The position numbers and the translations under genes are program-made. Below, in pieces: positions 11,535-43,087 of a stretch of 64,000 nt of DNA; position 1 is the stretch's first letter; each line of letters starts with the position of its first letter. Source of the stretch: Mayamaea pseudoterrestris (Eukaryota); the NCBI GenBank assembly GCA_027923505.1, contig BROI01000032.1, positions 1-64,000 on the forward strand. The letters are read 5' to 3'. Below the pieces are notes generated by a model. The model was not told the origin of the DNA and did no database searches. It worked only from the letters and a program-made list of their open reading frames with translations.

Positions 11535-11731
11535 TGTGCAGATTGCCCTCCGTCGCTCGGCTGCTTCTTTCCGCGGTGCACGGCCAAGGCCGGTCTAGCT
11601 GCCCAACAGGCGGCAGCGATGTCCATGTAGGTTGCGTATGCTATGTGACCCGGAAATCCGGGTCCCTGAGCAACCACGTCATCGATGATGACTGGCAGCG
11701 AGTCCTGTCTTGACAGGAGTCGCCTCAACCC
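11535..11731. repeat. Split direct repeat B2 (197 bp, 3' terminus of the YR element)
   Basis: Identical by eye to 11990-12186. Confidence 0.95.
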
Positions 11732-11746
11732 GGGTGGGTGGGTGGG

Positions 11747-11978
11747 ACAAACAAACAAACAAGCTGGCTAGACAACAGGGTTGGCAAGCAAGCAAGCAAG
11801 AGGAATGAGAGGCATCGGATGGGGATCGGCAACTTGGTCTGTGGTTGTCGGTCCTCCATTGATGTCGCATGTGACGTGTCCCGAACCATCGATGATGTGT
11901 ATCACTCAGAGTGTACTCATAAGGTATCTTATGAGTGTCCCCAAGGCAGTCTCCTCGAAGCATCCGCCCTGAGCCGGA
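11747..11978. repeat. Split direct repeat A2
   Basis: Matches 42592-42812 apart from 3 substitutions and an 11 bp insertion (tcgaagcatcc). Confidence 0.93.
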
Positions 11979-11989
11979 CAATCTGCACT

Positions 11990-12186
11990 TGTGCAGATTG
12001 CCCTCCGTCGCTCGGCTGCTTCTTTCCGCGGTGCACGGCCAAGGCCGGTCTAGCTGCCCAACAGGCGGCAGCGATGTCCATGTAGGTTGCGTATGCTATG
12101 TGACCCGGAAATCCGGGTCCCTGAGCAACCACGTCATCGATGATGACTGGCAGCGAGTCCTGTCTTGACAGGAGTCGCCTCAACCC
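11990..12186. repeat. Split direct repeat B1 (197 bp)
   Basis: Identical by eye to 11535-11731. Confidence 0.95.
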
Positions 12187-12465
12187 ACACGACAACAGCT
12201 AGCTGGATGGACGTCCCGCCACACAACAAAGGCCGTGTGGCGAGAACCGCGAAAGAAACAAAGAAAGAAGGAACGAGAAGAGGAAGAGGCTGAAGATCTG
12301 CTCCCTGTCTCCCTCGGTAGGAGGGATGGAAGCCCAGGACGAGGAGCGCACAAGTGCTGCACAATTTGAGAATTGTGAGACTCGGATGCGAATCCTGAGC
12401 GAGCGACTCGTAGCCAACGATATGCAATAGCTATGATTTGCACAATCAATGATAATAGCTAAGGA

Positions 12466-13767
12466 TTATAATAAAACTGCGCCTTCAATGGCTTTCATAG
12501 TGAGGCGTCCCACCTCGTGAGTGCTCTCCCGTAGATAATGTTGTACGGAGGGAGGCGACCACCGGAGACGGAAGGCAATCTCCTCAATGGAGAGCCCTGC
12601 GTTTTGTAGAGCCACGGCTGCTGTGACCCTATTAGAGTGTGCCACAATCCTGGTGATGTTGCTGCGCAAGTAATGTCGTTTGTCAGGATAGGCCCCGACG
12701 ACGGCCTGGCGCATGACTTTAATAATATCGCGTGACTGGAGGTACTCATACGCTCCTGTGGCGTCTTTGCGAAAGACACCCAGTGGCTCGAGTACAGGCT
12801 GTTTATGTAGTTGTTTGGCACGCTTCAAGATAGAGAGGCTGGCCGCGATAGGGCAGATGAAGGCGTGACCAGAACGGCGGAACCGGCGGATGGTGAAATT
12901 GTTCTGGCTCTTGTCATAGCGAAAGCGCAGGCGCAGCTCAAAAGTCTGAGTGCTATTTACCAAGAGAGCCGCATGTGACAAGAGTATATTATCCTTTGTG
13001 TAAAAGGTGAAATCAATGGCGACGAACGCCAGGGGTTGGCCGGCCCACTCGCCAGCATCAGCGTTAGCTGGCACTTTGCTGAAGCATCCCCGCTTTGCCG
13101 TAGTCTGAGCGTATTCGTTGGCTCGCGAACCTGTGAAAGCCCCCAGGCAAGTCCAATCAAACACTGCAGCGTCTATGTCGAGGGCGTGGCGCACGTCCTT
13201 GGAAGTCTGTTGTTTGAGCTTGCTGAACAAGTAACTGAACATTTCGTGTGTGTAAGGCTCTCGTTTTTCCCTCGCTTGTTGCCATTTGCGGCGGCTGGCA
13301 AGGATATCTGCCAAGACAGGATGAAGGCCTGAGCCGCGAGGGTCGTCGATGGAGAAGCGGCGATGAAGAAATGTTTCAAGGAGAGCGTGAGCGGCATTCA
13401 GGTAACCTACTAGAGTTTTCACCATGAGCGTCTGGTCAGGCTGGTTTGTTTCGCCCTTGGCCTTGCGCTTGTCAATCTCGAGTGAGGTTTCGCCTGCTGC
13501 CACTGCGTACAAGTAGCTGGCAATTACCGGGATTTCCTGCCCCGGTGCGATTTTACGGAAAGACTCGTCGTTGAATCCTGCCTTGAGGCTCCATTTTCCA
13601 AAATGCGAGGCTCTCTGGTCAAACGTGCGATCGTTTCCGGACCGTACATCGCCTCTGGGGCGGTGCCGTTGATTACTGATGAGATTGTTGTAAGCAGTCT
13701 GGATTCCACAAGGAAGACTTTGCAGGTCGCCAATGCCTGCGTTTCCAGCGTGATAACGGATGCCCAC
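12466..13767 (-). CDS. Tyrosine recombinase of the YR retrotransposon (start uncertain; overlaps RT/RH ORF by at least 244 nt)
   Basis: Catalytic set R (TGSRANEY), K (RYDKSQ), HxxR (AHSNRVTAA), W (LRWS), Y (VQHYLRE), plus ICPI before the C-terminal lobe. Confidence 0.92.
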   Translation of the reverse strand: MGIRYHAGNAGIGDLQSLPCGIQTAYNNLISNQRHRPRGDVRSGNDRTFDQRASHFGKWSLKAGFNDESFRKIAPGQEIPVIASYLYAVAAGETSLEIDKRKAKGETNQPDQTLMVKTLVGYLNAAHALLETFLHRRFSIDDPRGSGLHPVLADILASRRKWQQAREKREPYTHEMFSYLFSKLKQQTSKDVRHALDIDAAVFDWTCLGAFTGSRANEYAQTTAKRGCFSKVPANADAGEWAGQPLAFVAIDFTFYTKDNILLSHAALLVNSTQTFELRLRFRYDKSQNNFTIRRFRRSGHAFICPIAASLSILKRAKQLHKQPVLEPLGVFRKDATGAYEYLQSRDIIKVMRQAVVGAYPDKRHYLRSNITRIVAHSNRVTAAVALQNAGLSIEEIAFRLRWSPPSVQHYLRESTHEVGRLTMKAIEGAVLL

Positions 13768-16562
13768 GAGGCTGTCGAGGGTGTGAAGCGAGAAAGCCGA
13801 TCCGCCTCGACATTCGTCTTGCCGGGAATGTGGTTTGCCTGAATGCGAATGAACAGAGTGCTGTAAGTGATGAGTGCATGGAAGAACCTAGCCAGGCGGC
13901 GTACATGAGGCTTGTTGCAGCGAGCCGCGTGGCGCATCCATGATAGTGCTGAGGTGTTGTCTGCCAGAACGTTCAGGATGTGATGGTGGTGCCGTCGGAT
14001 GGGGCAGTTTTTGTACACTCCAATGGTGAGGACAACGTTGATAATGATGGCTGCAAACTCCAAGACGTTTATATGGTAATCATCATCGGTGAGAGGCCCA
14101 ATTATTGGGCGGTCTTGGACGTTGCGCGTGCGAAAGCCATGGACTGATAGGTCACCGTCGTGGAGACGCCACATGAATTCGAGTTCCACATTGAACGCAC
14201 CCACGCCTTTTGTGCTGGCATCACTTTTCAAGGTATTGGTGGGTTCACGCTCGACCATGAGGCCAATGGGTTTGCGCCAGATGTGTGCCCAAGCGGGGTT
14301 GTCGAGTGTATCGTGCAGCACTTGCAAATCAGCCAGGGCGCCCTCCGAAATTGCAACTCGAGCTGTGCGCCACCACCGCCGCAGCACTCGTTCTTGGCTA
14401 GGCGTAAGCCTGGATGTGCGAATGGAATGTTTCAATTTTGCATCTGCTTTTCGAGCTTGATCAGTGAGTGATTGCTGCAATCGAATGGACAAGTAGTCGG
14501 CTAAATCAGCCACCGAGCCCCCATGGCGCATGAGCCCTAAGATGGTAGCTTTGTCGGCAACTGGAACCAGAACCGTTTTTGGATGAAAGGCAAGTGACCA
14601 ATCGTCGCGCCAGCGATGCAGCATGTGCTTCAGTTTTTGTTGTTTCAAAAGCGGGAGGCCGACTTCCATGCGGCGAGAGTCCCAGTCGAGACCGAGGTAG
14701 TGTAATTGATGCGAGATGCGAGGCTGCCATTTTGCGGCGTTGATGCAAGCGCCTCTCCATTTGTCATTGACGTCGCCAAACACAATACTTGCCGCAATGA
14801 CACTGCGGTGGACGGCCTCTCTGATGTCTGGCCCTATGGCGGCCACGCCTTGGTCGTCGACGAAACTGGAGAAACCAAACTTGTAATCGGGACCGAGTAA
14901 TTTTCGTGTGCCTTGGTTGTAGCGGTCGCGTAGGGATTGACCAAACCCAGCGGACTCTGCGGCGGACGGCGGGTCGGAGAGAATAATATTGTCTGACAAA
15001 TCCGTAGTAGCTTGGCCGATGTCAAGGGTTGCCGCAATGAGGCTGCGCAACTCTCCCATTTTCATGTACCAGCCAGGGCAAGGTACGCCACCAAAGATTT
15101 GGCCGACGGGTATCACGAGCCATTTGTCAAGAACTGTACCAAACGCTACAGCAATGTCCGGATGGTAATGCAGCCAGCGGAATGCAGCTGAAATGTCGTC
15201 CGCGGCCATGTAGATTTCTTCGTGAGGGTGGTCGAGGCGTAAGTTCCACAAGAGTTTGAGCATGCGCGGGATGACAGTGCCATAATGGACCTTTGGGTTT
15301 TGTCGTTCGTCGTGGCCCTCTTTATAGAGCTTTGGCATCTGGCGATTGACGTTGCCGCGATCATCCGGATGGAGGGGTGTGGAAGGGTCGTTGATAAGGC
15401 GGCCTTCATCACCCAGCCGGCCTTCCTTGGGTGGAATGTAGGATAGTAGAGCGAGAAAGAGCCCTGGTACGTAGGCCCAAAGGAATCGCAGAAACATGAT
15501 ATGATAAGATAGTTTTTCCTCCTTGCGATATTTTTCCATGATGTTTATCCAGTCGGCCTCGAGGCCGCGGTTGTTTTCCTTCTCACGTCGAGCCACATCC
15601 TGGAATGGGCAGGTGAAGACGCTGCGAATGGGAACTCCCTCGGCTATGATGTGTTCTACGCCGGCAAAATCGACTGGTGGGTATCTTGGCGAAATCGATT
15701 TCTTGTGGAGTGTAGCGATAGCGTCGCGCAGTAGGGAGCGATCCTCGTTCTGGTGCGTATAGATGCCGCCTAGCCAACGGAGCAAGTCGCCGTAGTTGAA
15801 ATCGCAGCGTAAAAGTGCCGCGCCCATGTCGTAAACTCTGGACTCGTTAATAGCCGACATGTCTGTCTTTGGGTAGTAGCGCGGCTCGCGGAGATGCCAC
15901 AATGGTGTAGTAACAGCGTGGTGGCGCAAGGTCGCGTATCGATGTGTTGTGTCGTCGTTCAAAGCTGTCGCAATGTTATGTCGTTCCCGTGCGGTTAAAT
16001 AGCCCCAGGCGAGGTGCGTGAGGAGGTGCGGGGACGGAGCGTCATGCGAGGAGCTGATGTCAATCGATGCCTTTCCCCAGCCAAACATCCGTCGCCAGTG
16101 TATGCGATTGTCCAGTGGCAGTATGACTGTCGAGCCGTAAATGGGGTGATTGTGAAAGGGGTTTACTTGTCGCAAATGCATGACATCGAGCGGGTCTAGG
16201 AATTTCCAGACGTTTGCGAGTAACGTAGGCCAGTATGTAGTATCGTGTCGAACGGCTGGCTTTGGCGCTCTCTTTGGTGGTTTGCGACGTCGGCAGGAGG
16301 TGGCGGTGACGGGAAATGGCGGTAATTGTTCGCGTAATGTGCGTGCGCGAGCGATTGTCTCGGATGTGTGGGTCGCGGCGAGGACCGTCGCTTGTGGGCC
16401 GACCACTGGAGGCGGTCGAGGCGGTGTGGCGGGAGATGGAACGACTGCTGCGCCAGTCGCTGAATCGCCAGATGTATCTGTCCTGGTGGTTGCGTCGGTC
16501 GGCGCGGCGAACGGCGCCGCTGGCGGGCGCGCCGTAGTTGGCGAAACAGGAGTCGAGGCGAG
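13524..16562 (-). CDS. Reverse transcriptase-RNase H of the YR retrotransposon; frame is open up to the ORF1 stop
   Basis: RT motifs ADDISAAFR, IFGGVPCP, FVDD, HYLGLDWDS. DIRS-type RNase H motifs SDASTKGVG, HINVLEFAA, ADNTSALSW, HIPGKTNVEADRLSR. No stop between 16406 and 16562. Confidence 0.92.
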   Translation of the reverse strand, partial: LASTPVSPTTARPPAAPFAAPTDATTRTDTSGDSATGAAVVPSPATPPRPPPVVGPQATVLAATHTSETIARARTLREQLPPFPVTATSCRRRKPPKRAPKPAVRHDTTYWPTLLANVWKFLDPLDVMHLRQVNPFHNHPIYGSTVILPLDNRIHWRRMFGWGKASIDISSSHDAPSPHLLTHLAWGYLTARERHNIATALNDDTTHRYATLRHHAVTTPLWHLREPRYYPKTDMSAINESRVYDMGAALLRCDFNYGDLLRWLGGIYTHQNEDRSLLRDAIATLHKKSISPRYPPVDFAGVEHIIAEGVPIRSVFTCPFQDVARREKENNRGLEADWINIMEKYRKEEKLSYHIMFLRFLWAYVPGLFLALLSYIPPKEGRLGDEGRLINDPSTPLHPDDRGNVNRQMPKLYKEGHDERQNPKVHYGTVIPRMLKLLWNLRLDHPHEEIYMAADDISAAFRWLHYHPDIAVAFGTVLDKWLVIPVGQIFGGVPCPGWYMKMGELRSLIAATLDIGQATTDLSDNIILSDPPSAAESAGFGQSLRDRYNQGTRKLLGPDYKFGFSSFVDDQGVAAIGPDIREAVHRSVIAASIVFGDVNDKWRGACINAAKWQPRISHQLHYLGLDWDSRRMEVGLPLLKQQKLKHMLHRWRDDWSLAFHPKTVLVPVADKATILGLMRHGGSVADLADYLSIRLQQSLTDQARKADAKLKHSIRTSRLTPSQERVLRRWWRTARVAISEGALADLQVLHDTLDNPAWAHIWRKPIGLMVEREPTNTLKSDASTKGVGAFNVELEFMWRLHDGDLSVHGFRTRNVQDRPIIGPLTDDDYHINVLEFAAIIINVVLTIGVYKNCPIRRHHHHILNVLADNTSALSWMRHAARCNKPHVRRLARFFHALITYSTLFIRIQANHIPGKTNVEADRLSRFTPSTASWASVITLETQALATCKVFLVESRLLTTISSVINGTAPEAMYGPETIARLTREPRILENGASRQDSTTSLSVKSHRGRKSR

Positions 16563-18575
16563 TCAAGAGCTTATGAGTCTCGTGTATGCCTCAGTTGGGA
16601 GCAGTTTTTCTTTGACTCTGTCTCGATTAAGGAAGGTTGTCACTGGAGCGAGTGAAGCTCTTGTCCACATGGTTGGATTTGCGCGAATATTGATCTCGCA
16701 ACGGCGGCATGCTGTAGCGTTGCAGCCCCTCATGCCGGCGACAATGAACGGAAAGCATATCTGTGCGTTATTAACAACTGGGACGCGGATGTCTTGTCTT
16801 GTCAAGTCATTGAGGATTTGGCGAATGCTGGCCATGGTAGGTTCGGCGTTGCCAACACAAGTTATCAAGGCAACTGGCAATTTTCGGTACGTACCGTTAT
16901 CGGGCTGTGGATGTTGCTGGGGATGTTGACGCGCCGGTTGCTGGGCTGGCTGTTGTCCACTGTGTCCTGGCAGCTGGCGTCCTGGCTGTTGGTGAGGCGG
17001 CTGGAATGGTTGCTGTCGAGCCGGCAGCACGTATGGTGGCAATGGCCGACTGTACAGAACGGAGGATGGCGGCGCTGTCGAGGTAAAGACAGTGACGTTG
17101 AACGCTGCTGTGCAGTCCTGGCGCCAAGTCGCCAACTCTTCCTTTAAAGGCTTCCAATCGCGCATCCGGATAGAACTGTCGAAGGCTGACACGTCGGATC
17201 GCTCAGGGTACGCCCATAGGAGCACAGGGACGCAGTGTTCCTCGGGGAAGTAATTCTGTGACCAGTCAATGAAGATTTTAAAGAGCCGTTGTAGTGCGAC
17301 TAGTGTAGCCTCTGTAGCGCGGAGTTTGTTTCCGGCGGGAAGGCGTGTCCACGCCTGTTGGGTCGGATGATGCGTGAGTAAATCAATTAGCCAAAACAGA
17401 TGTCCCGCCATTGGTGAGGCAAGTAGGAATGGTGACAGCTCGGAGCTGATCTCTCTGAGCTTGCGGAAGCGGGAAGGGAAGTGGAATATTAAGTGGATCC
17501 ACCAACCCATGTTTCTGATTAGCTGAGCGAGCTGGGCGGGCGCGAAACCGTCCGCCGGGAGTCGGAAGGTGCCATTGCTGGTGATAGTAGTGATGAAGTG
17601 GAATGGCGTGATGCAACTGGTAAGGTTTGAGGCGCTTAGTGTTTCGCCAGTGCCAATGGCTCCAGTTTGCAGCGCCCGCAAGTGATCATTGCCGCGGAAG
17701 AACGCATCGCTCTCGAAAGATGGGCGGAAGCAAGTTGGAAAGGTGGAATGGGATGCCGCTTCGAGCTCGTTTGCAATGTACAGGCCCGCCTGCTGTGTTT
17801 CTTGTTGCCCTTGCTTTCCAGAGAGGACGTTAACACAATAAGCCTTGCTGATGATTCCCGGCAAGAGGAGGGCGTAATTTTCGTAAACGCCCTGACTGGT
17901 GTCCTCAGACGGTGGGCCCATCCGGATTGTTGGAGGGACGGCGTATGCGCCAAAGTGGGCCAACTGGCTCATAGCCGCGGTGAGTGATCCGCCGATATAT
18001 TTTTCGCGAGAGAACATGTTTGGATCATCAATCTGGTCGACCGTGGGGATGAGGCAATGTCCGACTGGATGGCCCTTTGTAGGCTTGTTACCGGGGAAAT
18101 AGGGGCCTAGGCCCGTTCGTTCTTGCTCGTATGGCAGATATATGCCAGATGTACTGAATGGCTTATTATTAGTGTGATCCTTGTGCTGGCGCAGCTGGAC
18201 GCGCGGTGGTGTCGCCGGGTGTGTGGGCGGCTTTCTGACGTCTGTAACTTCCACCGAGCCATCGCTATCACTCCAGCGTTCATGTTGGTGATAGTGCAGC
18301 TTTTTGGCGAGGCTGGAACCCTCCGCTTTCCGTTTGCGTTCCTGGGCTATCCAATCTGGTTCCTCTCTGGGGCGGCTGTCGTGGCCGGTTTGTCCGGACG
18401 GGTGCGCGGCCTGTTGCTCGGCATGGCGCTTGACCAGTGAAGGGCTACTTGCTTGCGACTGGAAACGCTCCCGAATCATATCCGATAATAGGTCTGTAGG
18501 TGGGGGACGACGGCGCTCCTTGTCGGCAGTTGCCGGAGTCTGTCGTTGTGTTTGGCTGGTCTTGGAAACAATTTC
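16563..18575 (-). CDS. 3' part (670 aa) of the gag-like ORF1 of the YR element, cut off by the copia insertion
   Basis: Joins in frame with 41065-42531 after removing the copia dimer and one TSD (..EDLSQL|EIVSK..). Q/P-rich tract and C-terminal Cys cluster CFPF..GCNATACRRC. Confidence 0.85.
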   Translation of the reverse strand, partial: EIVSKTSQTQRQTPATADKERRRPPPTDLLSDMIRERFQSQASSPSLVKRHAEQQAAHPSGQTGHDSRPREEPDWIAQERKRKAEGSSLAKKLHYHQHERWSDSDGSVEVTDVRKPPTHPATPPRVQLRQHKDHTNNKPFSTSGIYLPYEQERTGLGPYFPGNKPTKGHPVGHCLIPTVDQIDDPNMFSREKYIGGSLTAAMSQLAHFGAYAVPPTIRMGPPSEDTSQGVYENYALLLPGIISKAYCVNVLSGKQGQQETQQAGLYIANELEAASHSTFPTCFRPSFESDAFFRGNDHLRALQTGAIGTGETLSASNLTSCITPFHFITTITSNGTFRLPADGFAPAQLAQLIRNMGWWIHLIFHFPSRFRKLREISSELSPFLLASPMAGHLFWLIDLLTHHPTQQAWTRLPAGNKLRATEATLVALQRLFKIFIDWSQNYFPEEHCVPVLLWAYPERSDVSAFDSSIRMRDWKPLKEELATWRQDCTAAFNVTVFTSTAPPSSVLYSRPLPPYVLPARQQPFQPPHQQPGRQLPGHSGQQPAQQPARQHPQQHPQPDNGTYRKLPVALITCVGNAEPTMASIRQILNDLTRQDIRVPVVNNAQICFPFIVAGMRGCNATACRRCEINIRANPTMWTRASLAPVTTFLNRDRVKEKLLPTEAYTRLISS

Positions 18576-18580: not shown

Positions 18581-19123
18581 TGCTTGAGATCCAAGATGAA
18601 GGTCCGTACGGAAGTAGGGAGAAAAGACGGTTTAAACGCTAAAAGACTGGGGAAACTTTGAATCTATTGTTAGTAGATCCTCTAGAATGAGACGAAAGTG
18701 AAGCGGTCGATTTCGCATCCAAGAGTGGCTTCTCATTCATACGTATGTATATTGTCTACCGGTCGTGTCATTTTGTACTGGCCATCCCGTAGGCGGGATG
18801 GCTCTCGTCCGTCTACAGAATTGGCAGTATAGTCTTCACTGCTGGTAGTGTTTGCACGGCTTCGCTCTGTAGAGGCCCAACATTCGCTGTGTACGCCGGT
18901 TCCGGTATTCGATGTACCTGTGGTAGTCTTTCTACGGTTGTCAGTCGTGAATTCTTCGGGTACGGTGAAGTGTGTAGGGTTTGGGCCAGTGGCTGACTTT
19001 CTACTCTCGCCGTCGTAGGAGTGTGGTCGTGAACGGGATGTTCCGTGTCTTGGTGCCGCTGAGACCGTGTCGATGTCCTTTTCAATGTTGCTTTGTTCGT
19101 CGGCCAAAACGGGGATCCCAGCA
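18581..19123 (-). repeat. 3' LTR of copia unit 1 (543 bp)
   Basis: TGCTTGAGATCC...GGATCCCAGCA; four copies in the window. Confidence 0.97.
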
Positions 19124-29141: not shown

Positions 29142-29279
29142 TCAATACTCCGCTTGTTGCTGCAGAGCTTTGGAAATTCGAGGTTGACAGAAAGGGCTTG
29201 AAGAAATCCGCGTCCGGTTTTGTTCAATGCTTTGGAAACTTGGTAAAAAGATCTTGGTTCAATCGGCAAGTAATTACTT

Positions 29280-29822: not shown

Positions 29823-30365
29823 TGCTTGAGATCCAAGATGAAGGTCCGTACGGAAGTAGGGAGAAAAGACGGTTTAAACGCTAAAAGACTGGGGAAACTT
29901 TGAATCTATTGTTAGTAGATCCTCTAGAATGAGACGAAAGTGAAGCGGTCGATTTCGCATCCAAGAGTGGCTTCTCATTCATACGTATGTATATTGTCTA
30001 CCGGTCGTGTCATTTTGTACTGGCCATCCCGTAGGCGGGATGGCTCTCGTCCGTCTACAGAATTGGCAGTATAGTCTTCACTGCTGGTAGTGTTTGCACG
30101 GCTTCGCTCTGTAGAGGCCCAACATTCGCTGTGTACGCCGGTTCCGGTATTCGATGTACCTGTGGTAGTCTTTCTACGGTTGTCAGTCGTGAATTCTTCG
30201 GGTACGGTGAAGTGTGTAGGGTTTGGGCCAGTGGCTGACTTTCTACTCTCGCCGTCGTAGGAGTGTGGTCGTGAACGGGATGTTCCGTGTCTTGGTGCCG
30301 CTGAGACCGTGTCGATGTCCTTTTCAATGTTGCTTTGTTCGTCGGCCAAAACGGGGATCCCAGCA
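29823..30365 (-). repeat. 3' LTR of copia unit 2
   Basis: Begins immediately after the previous LTR (..cccagCA|TGcttgag..). Confidence 0.97.
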
Positions 30366-33300: not shown

Positions 33301-36300
33301 TCGCATTTGGGTGGTATATTGTAAGTGCAGTTGGATTGAAGGTGTCGGGCGCTGATTGGATTGAGTTTGTTGGTGAGGCTTCCGATGCTTCTGGAGTGTC
33401 ATGGTCAGTCAGATCAATCAGCGAGGTAGATCGTGTCAGGATGCGCTTTGTATGGAACGTTGGTTTCTTCTTGTTCTTGTCGTCTGGAGATTTCGCGGGT
33501 GGCGGCGGCAAATTCCCATGGTGATGCGGTGAGAAAAGACTGCTGTAGTTGCTGCTGCAGGAAATGACGTCAATGAGTGGTGTAGTGACGATTTCGTGAC
33601 GCGGGGGCTTAGGTTGAAAGTACGGTCGGTGAAGAAATGTGACGTCCTTGACGTCATGTACGCGATTGGTCTCGGGATTGAAGACGCGATAGCATCTGCT
33701 CGGGTGATTTTTGCTGTAGCCGACAAAGATGCCTTGGAATCCTTTTGGTGCTAGATGAGACTTTAATCCGGATATCACGACAGTGACTGCTTCGCCGTAT
33801 GGATGTAGATTCTTGATGATGGGCGACTCGGTGCCGTAGAAGTGTTTGAATCGAGTTGCTAGAGTGCTCTTGTGCTCGACGATAGCAAGATTGTCCATGT
33901 CAGTTGAGTATTCGAAGGCAGATGGTGCCAAATGAAACCGAATTGAAGGTGGAATGTTTTGAGCTGTAAATATGGCTCGCGTGCGATTAGTGAGCGTCGG
34001 GAATCCAATTTCGACAAGACTGTTTTGTTGCGGGGTGTCTCTCGCAGTCCATTCGATCTCGATCGGCAATTTCCAAGCGGAGCTCTTCATTGACTTGGCT
34101 AATGCTTGGTTCTCTCCGGCGTTGTCCATTCGAAGGTATTTGACTGTAATGCCGCGTTGGATGAGATAGTAGAGCATCTGGCATGTCGGCTCAACGATTT
34201 CCCCTTTGGTGCGGTACATGGCGCTGTGCTTGTAGCCTGTCGCTTCGTCGACAATGAGTTGCCATTGCGGTTGTATGGAGGAGAATCCAAGTTCTGATTT
34301 GCTCTTCATGACTCTAAATGAAGAGAGGTCCATGTAAAGTCGCTCGCCTGGCTCTGTGGCTCGGATGCGCGGCGATATTTGAGGGACCGGTTGCTTCTTG
34401 GCCTTGCCTATTGCGCAGGCAACACACTTGTTCTTGGACGATCCGTGTATTTCCCATCTAAAGTGCTTGGCAATTGCGAGTGTCATTTGGGGGCTTTGGT
34501 GTCCACACAGTTCGTGCATTTGTTTGTAGGAGAGACGGCGTGTCGGAAGCAAGTTGGCTGCAATCATGGCGAACTCGTTACGAGGCGCTTGAACTAATGG
34601 CATTGGAATGACTCGTCTCAAGTACATGCAGTAAAGATGACCTCGCTTGGTAGGAATCAGCAAGTCGAAGACGATGGAGTGTTGGTTTTCTTTCTCTAGC
34701 CAAATCTTCTTGTTGCCGCTGCGGAGGTTCCATCCTGTCGCTAAACGTTGAGTGATGCTGAACAGATTGAAGGCGCAGTCGGGCGCGTAAGCAACGTTGT
34801 TGAGGACTCCTTGGTAGAGAGGATTGCCAAATCGATCGCAGGCGTCGACGCGAAGCTTCGCCATGGTTTGAATGTCGGCGACTGTTTGATTTCCCATTGT
34901 GATGCCTTCATTTCGTATCTGACGGGCATCGAACAGGCCTTCTGGATGAGGTGTACAGTCGACGGTTGCTGCGGTATCGCCGATGAAGATTTCAGGATGC
35001 TTCAGGATATCCAAGTTGGTTGGACACGTAATGGATTCGTGGATAGTTGCGAGGGCGAATTCGTTGTTGTTGTTGTTTCTTCGAACCGCGTAGGCATTGG
35101 CGCTTACGTTGTATCTCAATGCATTGAATGGATTTGGGCTTTCGTGTTGCAGTTGATTTGAATTGCGAGCTGGAGGCTGGTATCTGCGTGCGCGTTGCTC
35201 TGCTGCTTCGCGTGCGTCTCTTGCCTCGCGTTCTGCAAGGAGGTCTAGTAGTTCCTGTCGTTCTGCTTCTCTCTCGCTTTCTGGAAATTGATCGAGGTAG
35301 TTGAAAGTCGTTAAGTCTTTGCTGAATTCCAAGCCGACGTTGCGGAGGTCTTCTTCTAGTGTGCTGCGCGTTCGCAATGTTCCTTCGAGTGCTCGTCTTT
35401 TGACTTCCTTGGCAATTGCATGATCGATGACGACTTTTAAACGTTCGTCAAACAGTGCTTCCTCGTCTTCTTCATTGATTTCTTCGAACCAGAAGATGAG
35501 ATCCTTGAGGAAACGCCTTTGGCTGAAACGTTCAAGCATGCACAGTCGTGCGGCGCTTGCAGGGTTTGTCTCGATGTCTTGCTCATCCTTCTTTATTTGT
35601 TGGATGGTGGTTTCGTAGCGCGCTCGAGAAACGACATGCTCAGGCGCTTGATTGCGGTGTTCCCAGGATTGAAGAAAAGCTTGATAGCCTTCATAGGTGA
35701 AGGAGTCTGATCCGTAACTTTGACTGCTTGGGTATGCATCTGAATCGTAAGTTGCGTCGTCTGAATTGGTTTCTTCGTCGCCAGGATTGCTCATGATGAT
35801 TTCGACTCGCTCTGTATCCCAGACTCGAAGACCGGTGTATTGGTAGTAGCGGTCTCGCGTTGAGTCAATTGCTTCTTGATGCGTAAAGGCGTGTGGCATG
35901 GCTATGTGCTCGAGAAAGAACTCTTGTAGATCTGCAAACATCACTTTTACGGCGTCTGACAGCTCGTATAGTGGAGGGTTGATGAACAGGACGCTTTGCA
36001 AGACGTGGAATGGCGGTAGATCACTCGAGTTGGCTTGTGGCGGAATGTTGTTTGGAATCCTTGGAGCAAAGGTTGGATACAAGTGCTCGACTTCTTTTAG
36101 CTCGTCTGCTGTGAGGAAGTCTTTGGGTAGCCAGTCTCCTCGCCATTGCGCAAAGCTTGTCGCTACGAGTTCTTCTACACTTTCTTCTTCTTTCAATTCA
36201 ATTGGAGGACTTGTTGTTGGAGTTGAATCTTTGTCGGCGCTGCAAGTTGTGACGTTGTCGGTGCGCTCATGTGTGTCGCATTCGTTGGCGTTTGTGGTTG

Positions 36301-38371
36301 TTGGCTCAAGATTAGTGGCTTCAGTTGTGTCGCTGCTCGTTGTGACGTTATTGGTGCTTTGCGTAGCGTCGTAGACGTGGTAGGAGTCGTTGAGGTTGTT
36401 TGCTTGCTCTTCAATTGATGAGTGCACTTGTTGCTCTGATTTACTTGGCTCGTCTTGTTTGTGGAATGGCAGACCCTTCCCGTCTTCTTGCTTCGTTTGC
36501 TCAAGTGTTTCAATGTTTTGAATTAAAGTGCTGAAGTGTCTCCGTTCTTGCTCGGTTGGAGTCTTGTTGTTGACAAACTCGTCTTCAAAGTCGCTTTCTT
36601 CTTCATCACTTGTGCTTGGGTCGCCGCATATGGATGCCCAACTGCGTCCTTTGAGATTTGACGATGGAAGATTTGGCTTTGGCTTTGGTGACTCACTCGT
36701 TGTGGACAACTTTGTTAAAGGCACCAATTCGACGGCTTGCTTCTTGTTGGTGGAGCTTGACGTTGGTCTTGCGCGTTTCGTTCGAGTTGTTGGTGGTGCT
36801 GGAGGCTGCTCGATTGATGAATCGTCTTCCGATGAATAGTCTTTAATCTGATGTGGCTGTAGACCGCGCCAGTTGGTTTGTGGGTATAAAGGCGACGGTG
36901 TTGGAGCTGCAGGAGTGCGGGTAGGGAGTGCTGGATAAGTTTCATCAACTAAGTCGGCATGTATGAAGGCAAATTCGCTCCTTGAGTTTGTAGAAGGATA
37001 ACGGCGGCTTGAAGAGGAACGTTGCGAAGAGGAACGATGCGATCGCTGAGTCAACTGAAGGGCTTCGTGTACTGCTGCAAGTCCTTGTTCGAGTAGTAAT
37101 GGCGCTTGACGAGGCACTTGTTCGCGCATGATGGTTCGCGGGTGAGGCTCTTGACGATGGTTTTGATGATCAAGTTGGCGCGGTTGCTCTTGTTGATCTC
37201 GGCGACGATAATCATTGTCTCTTGGTTGGTCTCTTGCGCGCTCGTTGTTGCGATTCTGTCGATAACGACGGTCTTCTTGCTGATCATCTTGTGGAAGACG
37301 ACGATCTTGCTGTCGATTTGAATTGCGAGGACGCTCTCTTGGTCGTTCTAAACCACGCTCTTGTTGCTCTCGTGCTTCTTCATCTTCCAATTGACGACGA
37401 GCTTCGATTGACAAGCGAGTGTTCCATCCTCGAGGACGACGGTGGGCGTTTTCGACTCGTTCAAAGCAGTCGGCGCTTCGATGATACGGTTGATGGCAAA
37501 GGTAGCATTTGAATGATGGTGGATTTCGCGTGTTGTTATAGTTGGTTTGCGGGCGTTCATTGCGAGTTGGCGGCGCTTGATGCTGACGAGTGTTTTGTTG
37601 GCGTGAAGTTTCTTGTTGCGGCGGTTCTGGTTGTGCTGCATATAGAACAATCTCGTTGACTCCTTGTATTAAAGCTTCTTCATCTTCTGCTGCGTAAATC
37701 GTTTGGTAGATAGTCGACACGACGCCCTCCATTTCGGTCTTGGTCAGGGCGCGTTGCTTGGTCTTTTGCTCTTGCGCTAAAGCGAGGCAGTATTGAGGCG
37801 GCAGCTTGTTCATGAGCGTAGCCATCAGGTCTTCTGCAAGAAGCGTTTGGTTGAACTTGATGGCTTGCGATTGCATGAGGTCGATGAGGTCTTGAGGGTT
37901 TGCTGTTGGTCGTTCGAGCTTGAGATTTTGAATGCTTCGTCGGTAAAGTGTTGGCGCCATGAACTTGTCTGGAGAAAACTTGATTTCCAATGCGTTGATA
38001 ACCTTCCAAGCTTCGCCTCCTGGATACTCTGTTGATTCTGCTCCGACAAGATGGTCGTTCAACTCGGGGAATGGCGACAATGCGATGGAAAGCATTTGCA
38101 TGAGCGTTTCATTCTGCTTGCGTTCCGCTTGTTTGTTTCGAATGATTTGGATTTCGTCTGCTGTTGCGTTAGCTGCGGGATCAGTAATGACTTCATTTTG
38201 AGTAGCTGGTAAGTGCTCGGGTCGACTGCCTCTTATAGGACGGCGGCAGCCTGCAATTCTTGCATGATTCTTGAACTGGTTGAACCATGATGGAAAGGCT
38301 TCGATGGTGTTGGTTATCTTTGGCGTTTTGTAGAGCGCATTCATAGTGATGTCTTCTTGTTGGTCGGTCAT
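29975..38371 (-). CDS. Copia Gag-Pol polyprotein (2798 aa), unit 2
   Basis: Translation appears identical to 18733-27129. Confidence 0.95.
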   Translation of the reverse strand: MTDQQEDITMNALYKTPKITNTIEAFPSWFNQFKNHARIAGCRRPIRGSRPEHLPATQNEVITDPAANATADEIQIIRNKQAERKQNETLMQMLSIALSPFPELNDHLVGAESTEYPGGEAWKVINALEIKFSPDKFMAPTLYRRSIQNLKLERPTANPQDLIDLMQSQAIKFNQTLLAEDLMATLMNKLPPQYCLALAQEQKTKQRALTKTEMEGVVSTIYQTIYAAEDEEALIQGVNEIVLYAAQPEPPQQETSRQQNTRQHQAPPTRNERPQTNYNNTRNPPSFKCYLCHQPYHRSADCFERVENAHRRPRGWNTRLSIEARRQLEDEEAREQQERGLERPRERPRNSNRQQDRRLPQDDQQEDRRYRQNRNNERARDQPRDNDYRRRDQQEQPRQLDHQNHRQEPHPRTIMREQVPRQAPLLLEQGLAAVHEALQLTQRSHRSSSQRSSSSRRYPSTNSRSEFAFIHADLVDETYPALPTRTPAAPTPSPLYPQTNWRGLQPHQIKDYSSEDDSSIEQPPAPPTTRTKRARPTSSSTNKKQAVELVPLTKLSTTSESPKPKPNLPSSNLKGRSWASICGDPSTSDEEESDFEDEFVNNKTPTEQERRHFSTLIQNIETLEQTKQEDGKGLPFHKQDEPSKSEQQVHSSIEEQANNLNDSYHVYDATQSTNNVTTSSDTTEATNLEPTTTNANECDTHERTDNVTTCSADKDSTPTTSPPIELKEEESVEELVATSFAQWRGDWLPKDFLTADELKEVEHLYPTFAPRIPNNIPPQANSSDLPPFHVLQSVLFINPPLYELSDAVKVMFADLQEFFLEHIAMPHAFTHQEAIDSTRDRYYQYTGLRVWDTERVEIIMSNPGDEETNSDDATYDSDAYPSSQSYGSDSFTYEGYQAFLQSWEHRNQAPEHVVSRARYETTIQQIKKDEQDIETNPASAARLCMLERFSQRRFLKDLIFWFEEINEEDEEALFDERLKVVIDHAIAKEVKRRALEGTLRTRSTLEEDLRNVGLEFSKDLTTFNYLDQFPESEREAERQELLDLLAEREARDAREAAEQRARRYQPPARNSNQLQHESPNPFNALRYNVSANAYAVRRNNNNNEFALATIHESITCPTNLDILKHPEIFIGDTAATVDCTPHPEGLFDARQIRNEGITMGNQTVADIQTMAKLRVDACDRFGNPLYQGVLNNVAYAPDCAFNLFSITQRLATGWNLRSGNKKIWLEKENQHSIVFDLLIPTKRGHLYCMYLRRVIPMPLVQAPRNEFAMIAANLLPTRRLSYKQMHELCGHQSPQMTLAIAKHFRWEIHGSSKNKCVACAIGKAKKQPVPQISPRIRATEPGERLYMDLSSFRVMKSKSELGFSSIQPQWQLIVDEATGYKHSAMYRTKGEIVEPTCQMLYYLIQRGITVKYLRMDNAGENQALAKSMKSSAWKLPIEIEWTARDTPQQNSLVEIGFPTLTNRTRAIFTAQNIPPSIRFHLAPSAFEYSTDMDNLAIVEHKSTLATRFKHFYGTESPIIKNLHPYGEAVTVVISGLKSHLAPKGFQGIFVGYSKNHPSRCYRVFNPETNRVHDVKDVTFLHRPYFQPKPPRHEIVTTPLIDVISCSSNYSSLFSPHHHGNLPPPPAKSPDDKNKKKPTFHTKRILTRSTSLIDLTDHDTPEASEASPTNSIQSAPDTFNPTALTIYHPNANAPTSAQEEGTDILNTPQSPRAHTTIADRQANAIQRHIARFSSNHSRGSQSSRSSTRSTRSNPGGLRRTTRETRTPTRFDPTNPATFAAILAALDERFGNRTTLYNACDNGYDSDRSAESEYNKYCESDEQEFHHRPYDDQQDEESVSSNGSIPPLVPRNDDYSSAGDSEAPELWGNEDSFCLPTQDQRYEAAYEPSHERDDDSVSLNDSIPDLVPRADDHSSAGDSQAIELWDINADDDEYEEELTQANGRPAPQPAAPQASIETVITTRVSNVCSPTLQLGKGFNPDDHEDKTSILVTETQDESDESTNQQIDLPPEQLAIMADLLHVPSSTILDDTHTSVHDSPYQQENDHEDQQSFHSADLIPAEIHLNLDETSEPPNEPTNSTFEYFFRDMPSTPSSASIFYDASPIPTLGEFACVGAGIGGGFINTEELHTIKFKQAMGSPERPEWIKAIRKEKDNLIKHGTFQVVSRSMIPPRTKCMTSKWVLKKKSNGTYKARITARGYEQEDGIHYDSNKISSPVASPTSIKIVTTLAIMMGYEPHIFDISGAFLYGTFDEGHECYMHIPEGFQDDYPPNHVWLLKRTLYGTKQAARAFWDQLVKALRQIGFERSVADPCLFYKQDGDRHMHIVSHIDDLLLSGPPDMIEDTKKQLLQHFDGEDGGPMDEYIGCKIERGENYMRWTQPVLLQSLQDEFTIPPPKRQEACVPAQPGTVLPCVKEGDPSALSNNKQTTLRQGLGKLLYLARWSRPETLYAINDLCRAMKTGEEAHEKAMYRAIRYMCATPKRGRLFLPNREYTGPNHVFIISARSDSDYAKDPDKHKSHSGGITYLEGVPVAEVCRLQKHVSLSVTESEMSAGTDVIQDMLHTHAILQSIGLKVQLPMVLEMDNSGAIDIINSWKTGGRTRHVDVRHNFARELKEHGILLVKYIETKKNTADIFTKNLDLSTFNRHARILVGEDEYYKMDSMPEAIALQGKGAGIPVLADEQSNIEKDIDTVSAAPRHGTSRSRPHSYDGESRKSATGPNPTHFTVPEEFTTDNRRKTTTGTSNTGTGVHSECWASTERSRANTTSSEDYTANSVDGREPSRLRDGQYKMTRPVDNIHTYE

Positions 38372-38379
38372 GGTTGCGA

Positions 38380-40383
38380 TTAGAATGTGTAGTAAAAGTT
38401 TTGGCTATTGGTCGGACGTTGATAGCTAACGTTGTTGTCGGCGAATGGAGATTGACGGTTTGGGGTAGCTAAACGTTGCTGACGTGGCCAATTGAGTTGC
38501 TGATGTGACGGAGTTTGAAAACGTGAACGAGCGTGGAACTGCTGAGCGTGTTGATCGCGACGATGGACACGTTGTTGATTTGTCACTTGTCGATTTCGTT
38601 GAGCTTGTAAGTGCAGCTGTCGTTGTTGTTGATTAAGAAGATGATTTAAACGAGTTACTTGAGCTTGAAGACTGTTTATATCGCGTGTATGATGAGTTGT
38701 AGTGTTGCGCGTGTCGTTGATGCGAGGCTGGACTCGAAGGGTTGGATTGGAGGTTCGGTTTTGCTGTCGGGTTGGCGTGACGATTCGATTCGCTTGTTGC
38801 TGTCTTAAACGCTGCTGGTAAGGACGATTGCTGTTCGTTTCGTTGCGTCGTTGATTGCGTCTTTGACTAACAGTGATTCGATTGCGTTGAAGATTGATCG
38901 AAGCTTGTTGCGTTGTTGATGCGCGCTCTTGACTTGCTTGTCGCTGTCCGTTTCGTTGTTGAAAGAGTGCTTGACGACGGTCTTCGACGCTTTGAACTGC
39001 TGCGATGCGAGGTGCTTCTTGGTAAGTGCTTGAAACGTTCTGTGAGCGAAGAGTTTGTTGCGATGGTCTCGTGTCTTGGCGATGCGCTTGTCTAACTGGC
39101 GCTTGATTTGCTTCTTGTTGGCGAATTGAATTGATTGATCGGCAAGTATGCGTCGTGCTTGTTGGCGATGTCTCTAATTGCTCGTTGACTGGCGATGAGT
39201 TGCTGCTTGGCGAGGGTACGTGTGTTTGCGTATTGGCGATGCACACAGAACAAGCGCACGTCGTCTCTGTGTTTATATCTGGTACTTCAGAAAGTCTTTG
39301 CAAGTCTTGACGTCTGTTTTCTTCGTCCTTTTGAAGCAGGAAACGAGTCTTCTTGAGGAAGTAAAGAGTTACTGGATGCGATAGGTCTTTTGCTTCGAAT
39401 TCGTCTCGCTCGTTGCGCAAAGTGTCTTCTAGTAGAAGAATCTCCTTCTCTTCGGGCGTGAAAGGATTGTTCGGTCGGCAAAGATCAAGGCTCTTGTAAA
39501 AGTCTGCTCGCTTTTCGTCAAGGAAGATTAATGACTTTGGAGAAAAGATGAAGGCTTTGAGAAAGGGTACGTTGCTGTCGATGTAACTTGTTTCGACGCC
39601 TGATTGTGCGGTTGACTCGGCAACTTTTGCTAATCCTTCTTCTTTGAATTCTTCCGCAATGTGACTGTAAAACACTTCGTTGTTGGCAAGGTCTTTAAAC
39701 TGATTGAAGCGCTGCTCACAAGCTTGTTCCGGGTCGATTGGCTTTGATGAAGGCGGCGGTAGAATGCCTCGAAAGATCCAGGCGAAACGCTTGTCTTCTT
39801 CGTCCCAAGTCCAAGGGGTTGGAGGAGAGACGCGCGGGTCGTAACGATACCAGCCGTATCGAACGTTCGGGTGGTTGTAAACTGCTTTCTCTTCGTCAGT
39901 GGCGGGTCGTCCAGTTAGATGCCAGTCTTCGGGGTTGTTTGGTGAAAGACGACGAAGGCTGTCGCGTGGGTTGTACTCGGTTGGAAGTCGCTCTCGTTCT
40001 TGATTGCTTGCAATTTGATCGGCGGCGGTAAGTCGGATTACTGGGCGGCCTTCTGGAGCGACCAATTGAGGACTTGAAGGGTTGAACTCGTGTAAAGTAA
40101 TGTTGGTGAAGAGGACGACGACTTGTAGAAGGCGTCGTGAAGAATTAAAGACTTGGCGGCTTGTGTTGAAGCGGCGAAGGAAACTGTAAAGAAGGCGCGT
40201 GACTTGTGGAGTGAGAGGCGACTTGAAAAGAGTGCTCGGCAGACTAGGTAAAGTAGTTCTGCTCAACTGATGGAGACTTGAAATCTGCTCGACGACGTTG
40301 GCCTTGATCAAACGCTTGATCCGACTCGAGGTAAACTGAAAGATAAAGGCAAAAGGGTCGCTTGTAGGCTTGCTCTTGCTCAC
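38380..40383 (-). CDS. Extra upstream ORF0, unit 2
   Basis: Same as 27138-29141 except one S-to-L change (G28822 versus A40064). Confidence 0.7.
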   Translation of the reverse strand: MSKSKPTSDPFAFIFQFTSSRIKRLIKANVVEQISSLHQLSRTTLPSLPSTLFKSPLTPQVTRLLYSFLRRFNTSRQVFNSSRRLLQVVVLFTNITLHEFNPSSPQLVAPEGRPVIRLTAADQIASNQERERLPTEYNPRDSLRRLSPNNPEDWHLTGRPATDEEKAVYNHPNVRYGWYRYDPRVSPPTPWTWDEEDKRFAWIFRGILPPPSSKPIDPEQACEQRFNQFKDLANNEVFYSHIAEEFKEEGLAKVAESTAQSGVETSYIDSNVPFLKAFIFSPKSLIFLDEKRADFYKSLDLCRPNNPFTPEEKEILLLEDTLRNERDEFEAKDLSHPVTLYFLKKTRFLLQKDEENRRQDLQRLSEVPDINTETTCACSVCIANTQTHVPSPSSNSSPVNEQLETSPTSTTHTCRSINSIRQQEANQAPVRQAHRQDTRPSQQTLRSQNVSSTYQEAPRIAAVQSVEDRRQALFQQRNGQRQASQERASTTQQASINLQRNRITVSQRRNQRRNETNSNRPYQQRLRQQQANRIVTPTRQQNRTSNPTLRVQPRINDTRNTTTHHTRDINSLQAQVTRLNHLLNQQQRQLHLQAQRNRQVTNQQRVHRRDQHAQQFHARSRFQTPSHQQLNWPRQQRLATPNRQSPFADNNVSYQRPTNSQNFYYTF

Positions 40384-40521
40384 TCAATACTCCGCTTGTT
40401 GCTGCAGAGCTTTGGAAATTCGAGGTTGACAGAAAGGGCTTGAAGAAATCCGCGTCCGGTTTTGTTCAATGCTTTGGAAACTTGGTAAAAAGATCTTGGT
40501 TCAATCGGCAAGTAATTACTT

Positions 40522-41064
40522 TGCTTGAGATCCAAGATGAAGGTCCGTACGGAAGTAGGGAGAAAAGACGGTTTAAACGCTAAAAGACTGGGGAAACTTT
40601 GAATCTATTGTTAGTAGATCCTCTAGAATGAGACGAAAGTGAAGCGGTCGATTTCGCATCCAAGAGTGGCTTCTCATTCATACGTATGTATATTGTCTAC
40701 CGGTCGTGTCATTTTGTACTGGCCATCCCGTAGGCGGGATGGCTCTCGTCCGTCTACAGAATTGGCAGTATAGTCTTCACTGCTGGTAGTGTTTGCACGG
40801 CTTCGCTCTGTAGAGGCCCAACATTCGCTGTGTACGCCGGTTCCGGTATTCGATGTACCTGTGGTAGTCTTTCTACGGTTGTCAGTCGTGAATTCTTCGG
40901 GTACGGTGAAGTGTGTAGGGTTTGGGCCAGTGGCTGACTTTCTACTCTCGCCATCGTAGGAGTGTGGTCGTGAACGGGATGTTCCGTGTCTTGGTGCCGC
41001 TGAGACCGTGTCGATGTCCTTTTCAATGTTGCTTTGTTCGTCGGCCAAAACGGGGATCCCAGCA
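40522..41064 (-). repeat. 5' LTR of copia unit 2
   Basis: 543 bp, followed on the plus strand by TSD CAACT. Confidence 0.97.
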
Positions 41065-42531
41065 CAACTGCGACAAGTCCTCTGCTGAGAGAGAGGCTGT
41101 GATGTCCACCCGCGCGTACTCCTCTAACAACGTAGGGAGCTCTGTTTTCTGGAACTGTATTTCGAAGTGTTTCACCCAACTGTTTGTTTTAACGTTGATG
41201 AGTGCTGGGAGATACCACATATCGTCGATGCGCGACGTGTGGAAACGTGCAATGTCTGGCGAGCGGTCGAAAATGGTCAGTGCATGTGCTCCCAGCTGCT
41301 TCAGTTTTTCTGGCCAGGTTCCTTCCAAGGTATGCAAGAGATGGTCCCATAGCAGGCGACTGCGCAGAACCAAATCAGGATGGTTAAATGTGTCGAAGGA
41401 AGCCCTTGTGTGTAGCGATTTGAAGTCGCTCCAAGTTTCCGTCGCTTGCGACATGAAGACTGTGTCCACTCGGAGTAACGCTGGACTAACGCGGCAGCCT
41501 GTTAACCACATATCCAAGAGTGGATTATCAATCATCCACGTGTATACCTCTTCGTCGAGGCCGGTGAACGCCACGCAATGGCTGCGCAACTCGGCGCCCG
41601 AGCGACAAGTACCTGGGTTGAAACCGACAGCGAGTGGAACGCCGTGATTTTTGGGAAGAAAGAAGCACCGTCCCATGGGGGCTAGCCAAGTACTCTCGGG
41701 TGTCAAGTCGCTATCCGTTGCGTAGGCAAGTAGGGCTGTTTCACCATGAGGATAGAGCAATGGTTCCTGCATGGTCGCCGTCAGCGTGCCCTTGCCTCCA
41801 AGGATGCAGGCTTCCATCGCATCGTCTGGCGGCGCCTCGTCCTGATGAAAGACAAGGACTACTGGCTGCATAACTTCGTCTCCCCTTGGAAAGAGGATAT
41901 GGTCGCTGCTAATCGCCTTGTACCACTCGTCAATCTTGGCGTTTCTTGGGGCCCTCGTCTGACACGAGGCTGCGGCCAAAATCGGGTTTACTGCTTTGGG
42001 TATCGGAAAGCCGCTTGGTTTAAAGCGCTGCGTGTCCGAGTTGTTGCTATCACTGTCGGCTAAGTGTTCGTCAGAACGCAGGAGGAACTTGCTTCCATCC
42101 TTTGTGCCAGCCGGTCGAGCGGAGCAGATGATGACCGTCTGCTCGTGCGTCGCCAATGGGTCTTCAGGTTTGGGCTGGTCCCCAAGATACTTGCTTTGGA
42201 AAACAGAGAGCGTCATGATGCCTCCAATATCCTGCACGTTCAGCTGATGGAGGCGATCGGGTGTACCGAGCCAGAGCTGCTTGTCGCTGGCCATCGGGTC
42301 GCTGGCCAAGATCATCCTCTTGTTCAATGCGAACACTTCCTCCTTGGTGAGGACTTCTTGTCCTTCTGTCCAACCGTCAATCTGAAACGCCATGGCTTCA
42401 GCACGCTCTTCCTGCTTTGTCATCTCCTCGCCCAACCAAGTAGTCGAGGCTGAGGTTTGGATCGGCAAACGGAAAGCTGGCGAAGCGCCTCCAAACTCTT
42501 TGAGAGCACCTGGAAAACGGACGAGCGTCAT
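41065..42531 (-). CDS. 5' part (489 aa) of the gag-like ORF1 of the YR element
   Basis: ATG (MTLVRFPG) at 42531, 60 nt after repeat A1; open to the TSD. Reconstructed ORF1 is 1159 aa. Confidence 0.85.
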
Positions 42532-42591
42532 GATCGAATGGAAGTGAGAGAATAAGTGGCAGAAAACGCGGTTCGAGCAACAAAGGCAAGA

Positions 42592-42812
42592 ACAAACAAA
42601 CAAACAAGCTGGCTAGACAACAGGGTTGGCAAGCAAGCAAGCAAGAGGAATGAGAGGCATCGGATGGGGATCGGCAACTCGGTCTGTGGTTGTCGGTCCT
42701 CCATTGATGCCGCATCTGACGTGTCCCGAACCATCGATGATGTGTATCACTCAGAGTGTACTCATAAGGTATCTTATGAGTGTCCCCAAGGCAGTCTCCG
42801 CCCTGAGCCGGA
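42592..42812. repeat. Split direct repeat A1 (5' terminus of the YR element)
   Basis: Near-identical to 11747-11978. Confidence 0.93.
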
Positions 42813-43087
42813 TTATTGTGTCGATTGGAGGAACCATTGGAAGCCAAATCTAATCCAAAAGCAACTTGGCGGGATCGTCAAGCTATGCCCCCAGGCTATT
42901 GCGATGCCAGAGGCATTCTTTCAAATGGCATTGGAACAACCGGCCGTTCAGGAGGATCCTTTCCAAAACTAAACTACTCCGCATAGCACATGCATAGTTC
43001 TCCGTCATTGGCTAACCTACGAGTCTACATGATCCTCCTACAAATGCGTCCAAATGTTACTAGCACGTGGTTGCTGCATTGAAGTCT

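Follow-up and report, generated by a model that had tools for sequence, protein, structure and literature searches.

A conserved in-frame stop codon between ORF1 and the reverse transcriptase ORF of a Ngaro-like tyrosine-recombinase retrotransposon in the diatom Mayamaea pseudoterrestris

Ngaro elements, retrotransposons which carry a tyrosine recombinase (YR), are on record from stramenopiles. In Ectocarpus, for which 15 Ngaro families are given (PMC12477816; Ngaro is also reported there in PMC3145265), Ngaro-2a_Ec32 is an element of 8,726 bp with A-int-BAB repeats, no target-site duplication and three open reading frames (ORFs), i.e. a zinc-finger ORF1, an RNase H ORF2 and a YR ORF3 (PMC12477816; this and all other citations refer to excerpts of the papers), and the Ngaro 1-4 elements of Cafeteria burkhardae have the layout A1-[ORFs]-B1A2B2, solo AB repeats and family-specific insertion preferences (PMC8547959). 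The element described here resembles both. It lies on the minus strand of a 64,000-nt stretch of the genome of the diatom Mayamaea pseudoterrestris (GenBank assembly GCA_027923505.1, contig BROI01000032.1, positions 1 to 64,000, referred to as the window), where it spans 11524-42812 in the order A1-ORF1-reverse transcriptase (RT)/RNase H-YR-B1-A2-B2. The initial annotation of this stretch had recognised that layout, which is indeed present in the sequence; its span of 11535..42820 needs correcting to the exact ends, and the organisation is already known in stramenopiles from Cafeteria and from Ectocarpus Ngaro-2a. Class and layout are thus not new; what is new, within the literature searched, is a conserved in-frame stop codon at the end of ORF1, and the resulting in-frame gag-stop-pol junction, which had gone unnoticed, is the most interesting feature of the element.

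In the window, ORF2 (13524..16562, minus strand; 1012 codons comprising a variable linker, a conserved N-terminal block, RT and RNase H) starts at the base directly after the ORF1 stop and in the same frame, so that a single in-frame UGA (16563..16565, minus strand, context UGA-CUC) forms the boundary and is a candidate readthrough stop. UGA-C stands at the junction in nine of the ten copies inspected in this genome, one of which is frameshifted just downstream, and the tenth copy is frameshifted upstream. A wider junction survey comprised 89 loci (80 metagenomic and 9 from the same genome), 46 of which were dropped because the 200 upstream codons or the ORF2 start were missing, and families were defined as groups less than 70% identical. 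Among loci with an intact, one-piece ORF2, 20/24 have a long in-frame ORF1 behind one stop, and by family this is true for 11/14, which keep a single in-frame UAG or UGA between the two coding regions; among loci with a broken or split ORF2, nine of 19 are in frame. Across 17 families the ORF1 stop is UGA in 15 (UGA-C in ten), UAG in two and UAA in none, versus six UAA, six UAG and two UGA for the YR stops of the same elements in 14 families (p 5e-5, although such stop-codon p values overstate independence, as the families are related by descent). The 15 in-frame ORF1s that were aligned finish within a few residues of one conserved motif, past a Cys/His cluster, and the linker that follows the stop is unalignable between families and of variable length, yet open and in frame. 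The first AUG of ORF2 is found anywhere from codon 19 to codon 406 across families (at the earliest codon 128 in the window), and at the loci L021, L121, L174, L175 and L181 it is located behind conserved blocks. In the codons before this AUG, nonsynonymous differences (pN) are well below synonymous ones (pS) in all six pairs tested (p<1e-16 for L174/L175/L181, p 6e-4 for the window and L021), and by this measure the codons ahead of the first AUG of ORF2 are under purifying selection.

Stop-codon readthrough explains the single in-frame stop, the absence of UAA, the open linker, the late AUG and the purifying selection together, and readthrough uses UAG or UGA, rarely UAA (PMC8310308). We think it likely that ORF1 is an abundantly made structural protein, and that RT and RNase H are produced as an ORF1-ORF2 fusion through occasional readthrough of the UGA (UAG in some families). 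Selenocysteine at the UGA is disfavoured, since some families have UAG. Several observations do not sit well with readthrough: three of the 14 families with intact ORF2 break the single-stop rule; L133 is in frame with two stops, L136 is out of frame and L135 is frameshifted, though its sister L142 is in frame; and 10/19 loci with a broken or split ORF2 are out of frame. No conserved 3' stimulator hairpin or pseudoknot was seen in the window clade, and Tca2, which has the same gag-UGA-pol layout, directed no readthrough in a reporter (PMC2194720). Furthermore, ORF1 is assigned as Gag by its position and a zinc-finger-like motif only, and the fusion by readthrough is itself predicted from sequence. 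The same element could instead express RT/RNase H from a separate subgenomic or spliced mRNA, from a non-AUG start or by re-initiation after the ORF1 stop, with the in-frame layout as inherited history. We regard this as unlikely, even though a conserved AUG is missing from the YR ORF too, which implies a non-standard start of some kind in any case, the gag-pol junction of Tca2 contains a minor promoter (PMC2194720), and the three deviating families would be accommodated: separate expression of ORF2 does not account for a linker which is unalignable and length-variable but still open and in frame, it leaves the absence of UAA unexplained, and, apart from Val and Trp codons, 20 aligned ORF2s show no column in which a splice donor or acceptor is conserved. 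If readthrough of the ORF1 stop is correct, it would be stop-codon readthrough in diatoms and in the order DIRS, neither of which was found in the literature searched (which did not extend to Repbase, Dfam and the original Ngaro papers), and no in-frame ORF1 stop was described there for this class of elements; the excerpts of PMC9210276 and PMC3783388 describe overlapping or frameshifted ORFs, not readthrough.

ORF3, which encodes the YR (12466..13887, minus strand; 473 codons from stop to stop), is in the -1 frame and overlaps ORF2 by 364 nt, and such a -1 overlap is present in 17 of the 18 families for which a downstream ORF was picked up (20 examined). Conservation of the YR begins at a G-x-R-Y motif, with an AUG there or a few codons on in many families, whereas the conserved part in the window begins about 110 codons upstream of the first AUG, and in the window, L021, L121 and L128 GUG or UUG is found near G-x-R-Y, with no AUG for more than 100 codons. 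Across 20 aligned families, neither a splice site (donor or acceptor) nor a slippery heptamer that could serve YR expression was seen to be conserved, although donors within the unalignable linker could have escaped. Our best guess from these alignments is that the YR is expressed by its own initiation near G-x-R-Y.

In the remainder of the element, ORF1 is split by an insert of 22,489 nt. The first 489 codons of ORF1, counted from the ATG at 42531 (41065..42531, minus strand), are Gag-like by position only, and the last 670 codons plus stop (16563..18575, minus strand) encode a helical domain of unassigned fold and the C-terminal Cys/His zinc-finger-like motif. Subtracting the insert by coordinates leaves an ORF1 of 1159 codons, as the initial annotation had it, in an element of 8,800 nt, and an alignment with an uninterrupted copy matches its residues 73-567 and 568-1222 to the two halves. 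The 5' terminal repeat A1 (42592..42812, minus strand) has an 11-nt deletion and three substitutions relative to A2 (11747..11978, minus strand), and B1 (11979..12186, minus strand) differs at 2/208 sites from B2 (11524..11731, minus strand), which forms the 3' end of the element and is preceded by a 15-nt spacer (11732-11746). The B repeats are therefore not identical, contrary to the initial annotation, and of its intact 8.8 kb element the size holds up, whereas with these repeat differences the copy is not fully intact. The catalytic residues that it had listed are all present, with the RT motifs DDISAAF and FVDD, all four RNase H acidic residues and the R-K-HxxR-W-Y set of the YR intact. 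It was also right that no methyltransferase or hydrolase ORF is evident: in the window there is no room for a methyltransferase downstream of RNase H and no hydrolase among the ORFs of the element, and in the aligned families the tail after RNase H is 72-88 residues in 19 of 20 ORF2s, with a DPPY-type methyltransferase motif absent from all 20. Pfam gave no match at threshold for the ORF1, ORF2 or YR of the window, nor for 26 related proteins, which agrees with the lineage having been called poorly characterised. A search of PDB sequences with the RT profile returned nothing, and searches of the ESM Atlas gave unnamed clusters only. The highest-ranking matches of a fold model of ORF2 (mean pLDDT 58) were structures of RTs and RNases H, every one of them weak (best E 5e-3), and for a model of ORF1, which covered the C-terminal half (mean pLDDT 68), PDB, viral and wide searches all failed to give a clear match of fold (best Z 4.5), leaving room for a capsid fold. 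We have hardly any doubt that this is a real, single copy of a Ngaro-like element, dead as it stands.

The insert in ORF1 consists of two complete Ty1/Copia elements on the minus strand, arranged head to tail and joined long terminal repeat (LTR) to LTR. Element 1 (29823..41064) has LTRs at 40522-41064 and 29823-30365, a 667-aa ORF and a 2809-aa polyprotein, and element 2 (18581..29822) has LTRs at 29280-29822 and 18581-19123; the two differ at one of 11,242 sites, and Pfam RVT_2 is matched (E 4e-42). A 5-bp target duplication (41065..41069, with the other copy at 18576-18580) brackets the whole insert, and it is this tandem pair that later disabled the YR element. There are no bases between the adjoining LTRs, and a single difference between the 5' and 3' LTR is common to both elements; the arrangement could have arisen by recombination between a two-LTR circle and a resident copy, by integration of a dimer, or by mis-assembly. 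The 667-codon ORF (27138-29141 and 38380-40383) is Pfam-blank and located upstream of, and slightly overlapping with, the 2809-codon polyprotein. A member of the same Copia family has inserted into the RT of a further copy of the YR family (L026, G000:C15:726600-732200), near the region of contig C15 which holds the empty site described below, and two of ten Copia insertions sit in the YR family of the window.

For each flank of the YR element the genome contains one further match, and these two lie side by side (C15:710871-711343 and 711344-711828, 97% and 94% identical). Compared base by base, this empty site equals the left flank plus the right flank with nothing gained or lost, which means that A1 and B2 belong to one insertion and that there was no target-site duplication; in the two satellite-embedded copies tested, the repeat unit likewise resumes within 0-1 nt after the element. 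Mis-assembly, or separate origins of A1 and B2, which the initial annotation had named as the outcome that would overturn its reading, are accordingly extremely improbable: the Copia copies differ at so few sites that the tandem pair itself could be mis-assembled, but against this reading as a whole stand the exact empty site, which refutes separate insertions for the YR element, the contiguous ORF1 halves, the one 5-bp duplication round the whole insert, and a 5,051-nt contig from an independent assembly which spans 13559-18609 without a gap. Part of C15 seems to have its second haplotype in the contig of the window (C15:710871-711828 versus window 11050-11523 and 42813-43300), and C33:144839 and C10:470192 also carry one of the flanks. 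The insertion is probably present on one haplotype (heterozygous). In the contigs of a public run, which may be of the source sample, the flank contig has a depth of 28 and continues for 160 letters unlike the element, and the body of the element has a depth of about 15, a pattern that agrees loosely with a one-haplotype insertion. Heterozygosity alone does not date the event, as the haplotypes differ by 3-6% here; from the 1% divergence of its repeats, the insertion is young but not brand new.

The split-repeat model predicts that the ends of an element lie at the joint between a B end and an A start. B1 adjoins A2 without a spacer, giving a copy of the presumed end-to-end junction, and the genomic ends fall exactly at this B1/A2 joint, as the model predicts. 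AT is present at -4/-3 of the joint, and also at -4/-3 in 13 of 20 outer 5' flanks, where about 1.4 are expected (a count in which one inner joint was reclassified and the window offset was corrected by hand). A 13-pair hairpin at the end of B1 spans the joint, and a second, covarying hairpin of nine pairs is located inside A, about 40 nt from the start of A2; over nine copies 91% of cells pair and seven pairs change on both sides, with about three independent subfamilies represented and the structure drawn from the same sequences. The variable loop suggests a single-stranded hairpin structure, and the single-stranded cDNA of DIRS-1 is a precedent for hairpin ends (PMC7192593). A fixed double-stranded YR site with a central crossover is disfavoured, as 3 nt separate the cut from the point where the right arm ends, and the length of the loop ranges between 2 and 7+ nt. 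Following the model for the family, a transcript without the outermost ends would be reverse transcribed, A2 and B1 would act as templates restoring the ends of the element, the joint of B end and A start, copied in B1/A2, would be formed, and the YR would recombine this joint into a target having AT at -4/-3 in common with it. The exact filled/empty pair and the 20 flanks define the target rule of the recombinase, and scarless integration of low specificity is of interest for genome tools.

Insertions of the window-type subfamily are also unevenly distributed. Thirteen of 19 window-type insertions with a precise end (copies without one were left uncounted) adjoin a tandem array of 169-371 nt, against 3/40 evenly spaced control points in the genome (p 2.5e-6). 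The sister subfamily has none of four insertions beside satellites (one of five including a mixed copy), other YR families have 3/21 loci by a laxer test, and the nested Copia family has 5/10, a difference from the YR family with p 0.43. At least four unrelated satellites were hit at differing positions of the unit, so that any aim would be at chromatin and not at sequence. Sequence-specific targeting of the satellite palindrome was rejected, as insertion points differ within the unit. Active targeting of satellite chromatin through ORF1 has been considered, along the lines proposed for Cafeteria Ngaros and virophage DNA, where ORF1 is linked to target choice by Hackl et al. (PMC8547959). The enrichment over the genome points and the lack of it in the sister subfamily favour such targeting; the enrichment of the Copia family suggests that arrays are general sinks, the window copy is intergenic and 5.3 kb from an array, the contrast between subfamilies is weak (p 0.02-0.12), and no reader domain was found in ORF1, so that targeting is possible but we lean away from it. 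The enrichment itself is real, but persistence of copies in silent chromatin may account for it no less than targeting. The satellite in the window (48083-54404) has a 347-bp unit with halves of 170 and 177 bp and a palindrome in each, and a 169-bp satellite accounts for at least 7,312 units, or about 4% of the genome.

With regard to host and relatives, the named proteins most similar to those of the element are hypothetical gene models from M. pseudoterrestris, a pennate diatom, consistent with the diatom host suggested initially, and Nitzschia inconspicua has a more distant relative, and so the lineage is present in at least two diatoms; it is large and not seen by Pfam. The halves of the element do lie 22.5 kb apart as first reported, but gene callers have not missed them: they were mis-annotated, in that a public hypothetical model of 1864 aa fuses ORF1b, to which it is 100% identical across 80% of the query, to the RT. 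The 3' end of the element has 55 matches in the genome, which also contains four solo AB repeats, together with 32 exact matches to the A-start motif and 31 to the B-end motif, all stopping at one and the same base. A search for uninterrupted copies, as had been proposed, found six (8,068-8,802 nt, several with frameshifts), and hence the family needs no reconstruction. The RT DNA of the nearest full-length copy is only about 70% identical to that of the window, which indicates that there are several subfamilies, each of few copies. With an RT profile, 705 clusters were found at E<1e-30 and 7,196 at 1e-3, the latter expected to take in other YR families, and word-based homologue searches, which understate the size of the family, gave only 17, 18 and 2 proteins. 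In a tree of 113 core sequences (rows required to span the core, root arbitrary, curated references not included), 108 are in one clade with the window (support 0.999); two other YR families that the genome contains lie apart from this clade.

Two further split-repeat YR families of the genome (L033 2360-8860; L054, L056, L057 and L058) have RTs that are about 19% identical or on long branches, and also have ORF1, stop and ORF2 in frame; the stop is UAG-G or UGA-G, and a strong hairpin begins 2-7 nt downstream of it. One of the two is inserted within an A2 repeat belonging to the window family. Rearranged copies include L055 (G000:C5:41092 onward), in which the internal region of an unrelated L056-type YR family comes after an A1 from the sister subfamily, as a chimera or a nested insertion, L032/L033 (G000:C9:15600-18400), with a 1,380-nt tandem duplication of YR-B1-A2, and L031, in which B has 146-nt tandem expansions. 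The host genes in the window are found within 1940-5619, 44318-47518 and 56591-62700 (FAD/NAD oxidoreductase, NYN plus SAP protein, P-type ATPase), and a glutamine-amidotransferase-like plus EF-hand gene and a TPR-like gene were recognised by eye.

How YR retrotransposons express their ORFs and choose their targets is an almost untested field, and two open questions can be put to a direct test with the conserved stop and the exact filled/empty pair. There is a practical side as well, in that Pfam overlooks a lineage comprising hundreds of clusters, and annotation turns its copies into false host genes. [quoted passage not shown] Formal membership of Ngaro is quite probable. The VIPER-like order is Gag-YR-RT/RH, whereas the window has ORF1, RT/RH and YR, all on one strand and with only direct repeats at the ends; this arrangement also differs from kangaroo elements in the strand of the YR, from DIRS1-like elements in the absence of inverted terminal repeats, and from PAT-like elements in the absence of a methyltransferase after RNase H. 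Structure is, however, homoplastic among YR retroelements (PMC4157794).

The element might be an ordinary member of an already curated Ngaro family in which only the host is new. Ectocarpus Ngaro-2a matches it in layout and size, and a diatom, Chaetoceros, has the automatic RepeatModeler label LTR/Ngaro (preprint); yet we find this rather doubtful, as Cafeteria Ngaros match PF00078, PF17919 and PF00589 (PMC8547959) and the RTs of the window lineage match none, the ORFs of Xenopus Ngaro all overlap in different frames (PMC9210276), and the in-frame stop is undescribed in the literature searched. No curated diatom YR retrotransposon was found in that literature, which likewise left aside Repbase, Dfam, Goodwin and Poulter 2004 and Poulter and Butler 2015, nor is a diatom YR element in the reference list of PMC6681497, as excerpted. 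At the other extreme, an unrecognised, species-rich algal YR clade apart from Ngaro proper, with UGA readthrough throttling the RT, a single-stranded hairpin joint entering AT targets without base change, and a capsid-unlike ORF1 of 1,100-1,250 residues steering some subfamilies to satellites, would be an ambitious reading which we consider improbable as a whole.

Compared with the described systems, Ectocarpus Ngaro-2a_Ec32, compared by description only, has no in-frame stop or readthrough noted in the supplements (PMC12477816), and the Cafeteria Ngaros differ in being about 6 kb and preferring virophage DNA, with no recoding mentioned in the text excerpted (PMC8547959). PAT, TOC and kangaroo elements have split direct repeats and, in some, a zinc-finger Gag, but carry a methyltransferase domain and, in kangaroo, an inverted YR (PMC4157794). 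Dictyostelium DIRS-1 has RT/RH and YR, heterochromatin enrichment and a short sequence common to end junction and target, and differs in its inverted terminal repeats, internal complementary region and methyltransferase (PMC7192593). Finally, MuLV (PMC8310308) and Candida Tca2 (PMC2194720) are LTR elements with a DDE integrase, and MuLV needs a pseudoknot (PMC8310308), of which none was found conserved in the window clade, but both have, like the element in the window, gag and pol in the same frame with one UAG or UGA between them.

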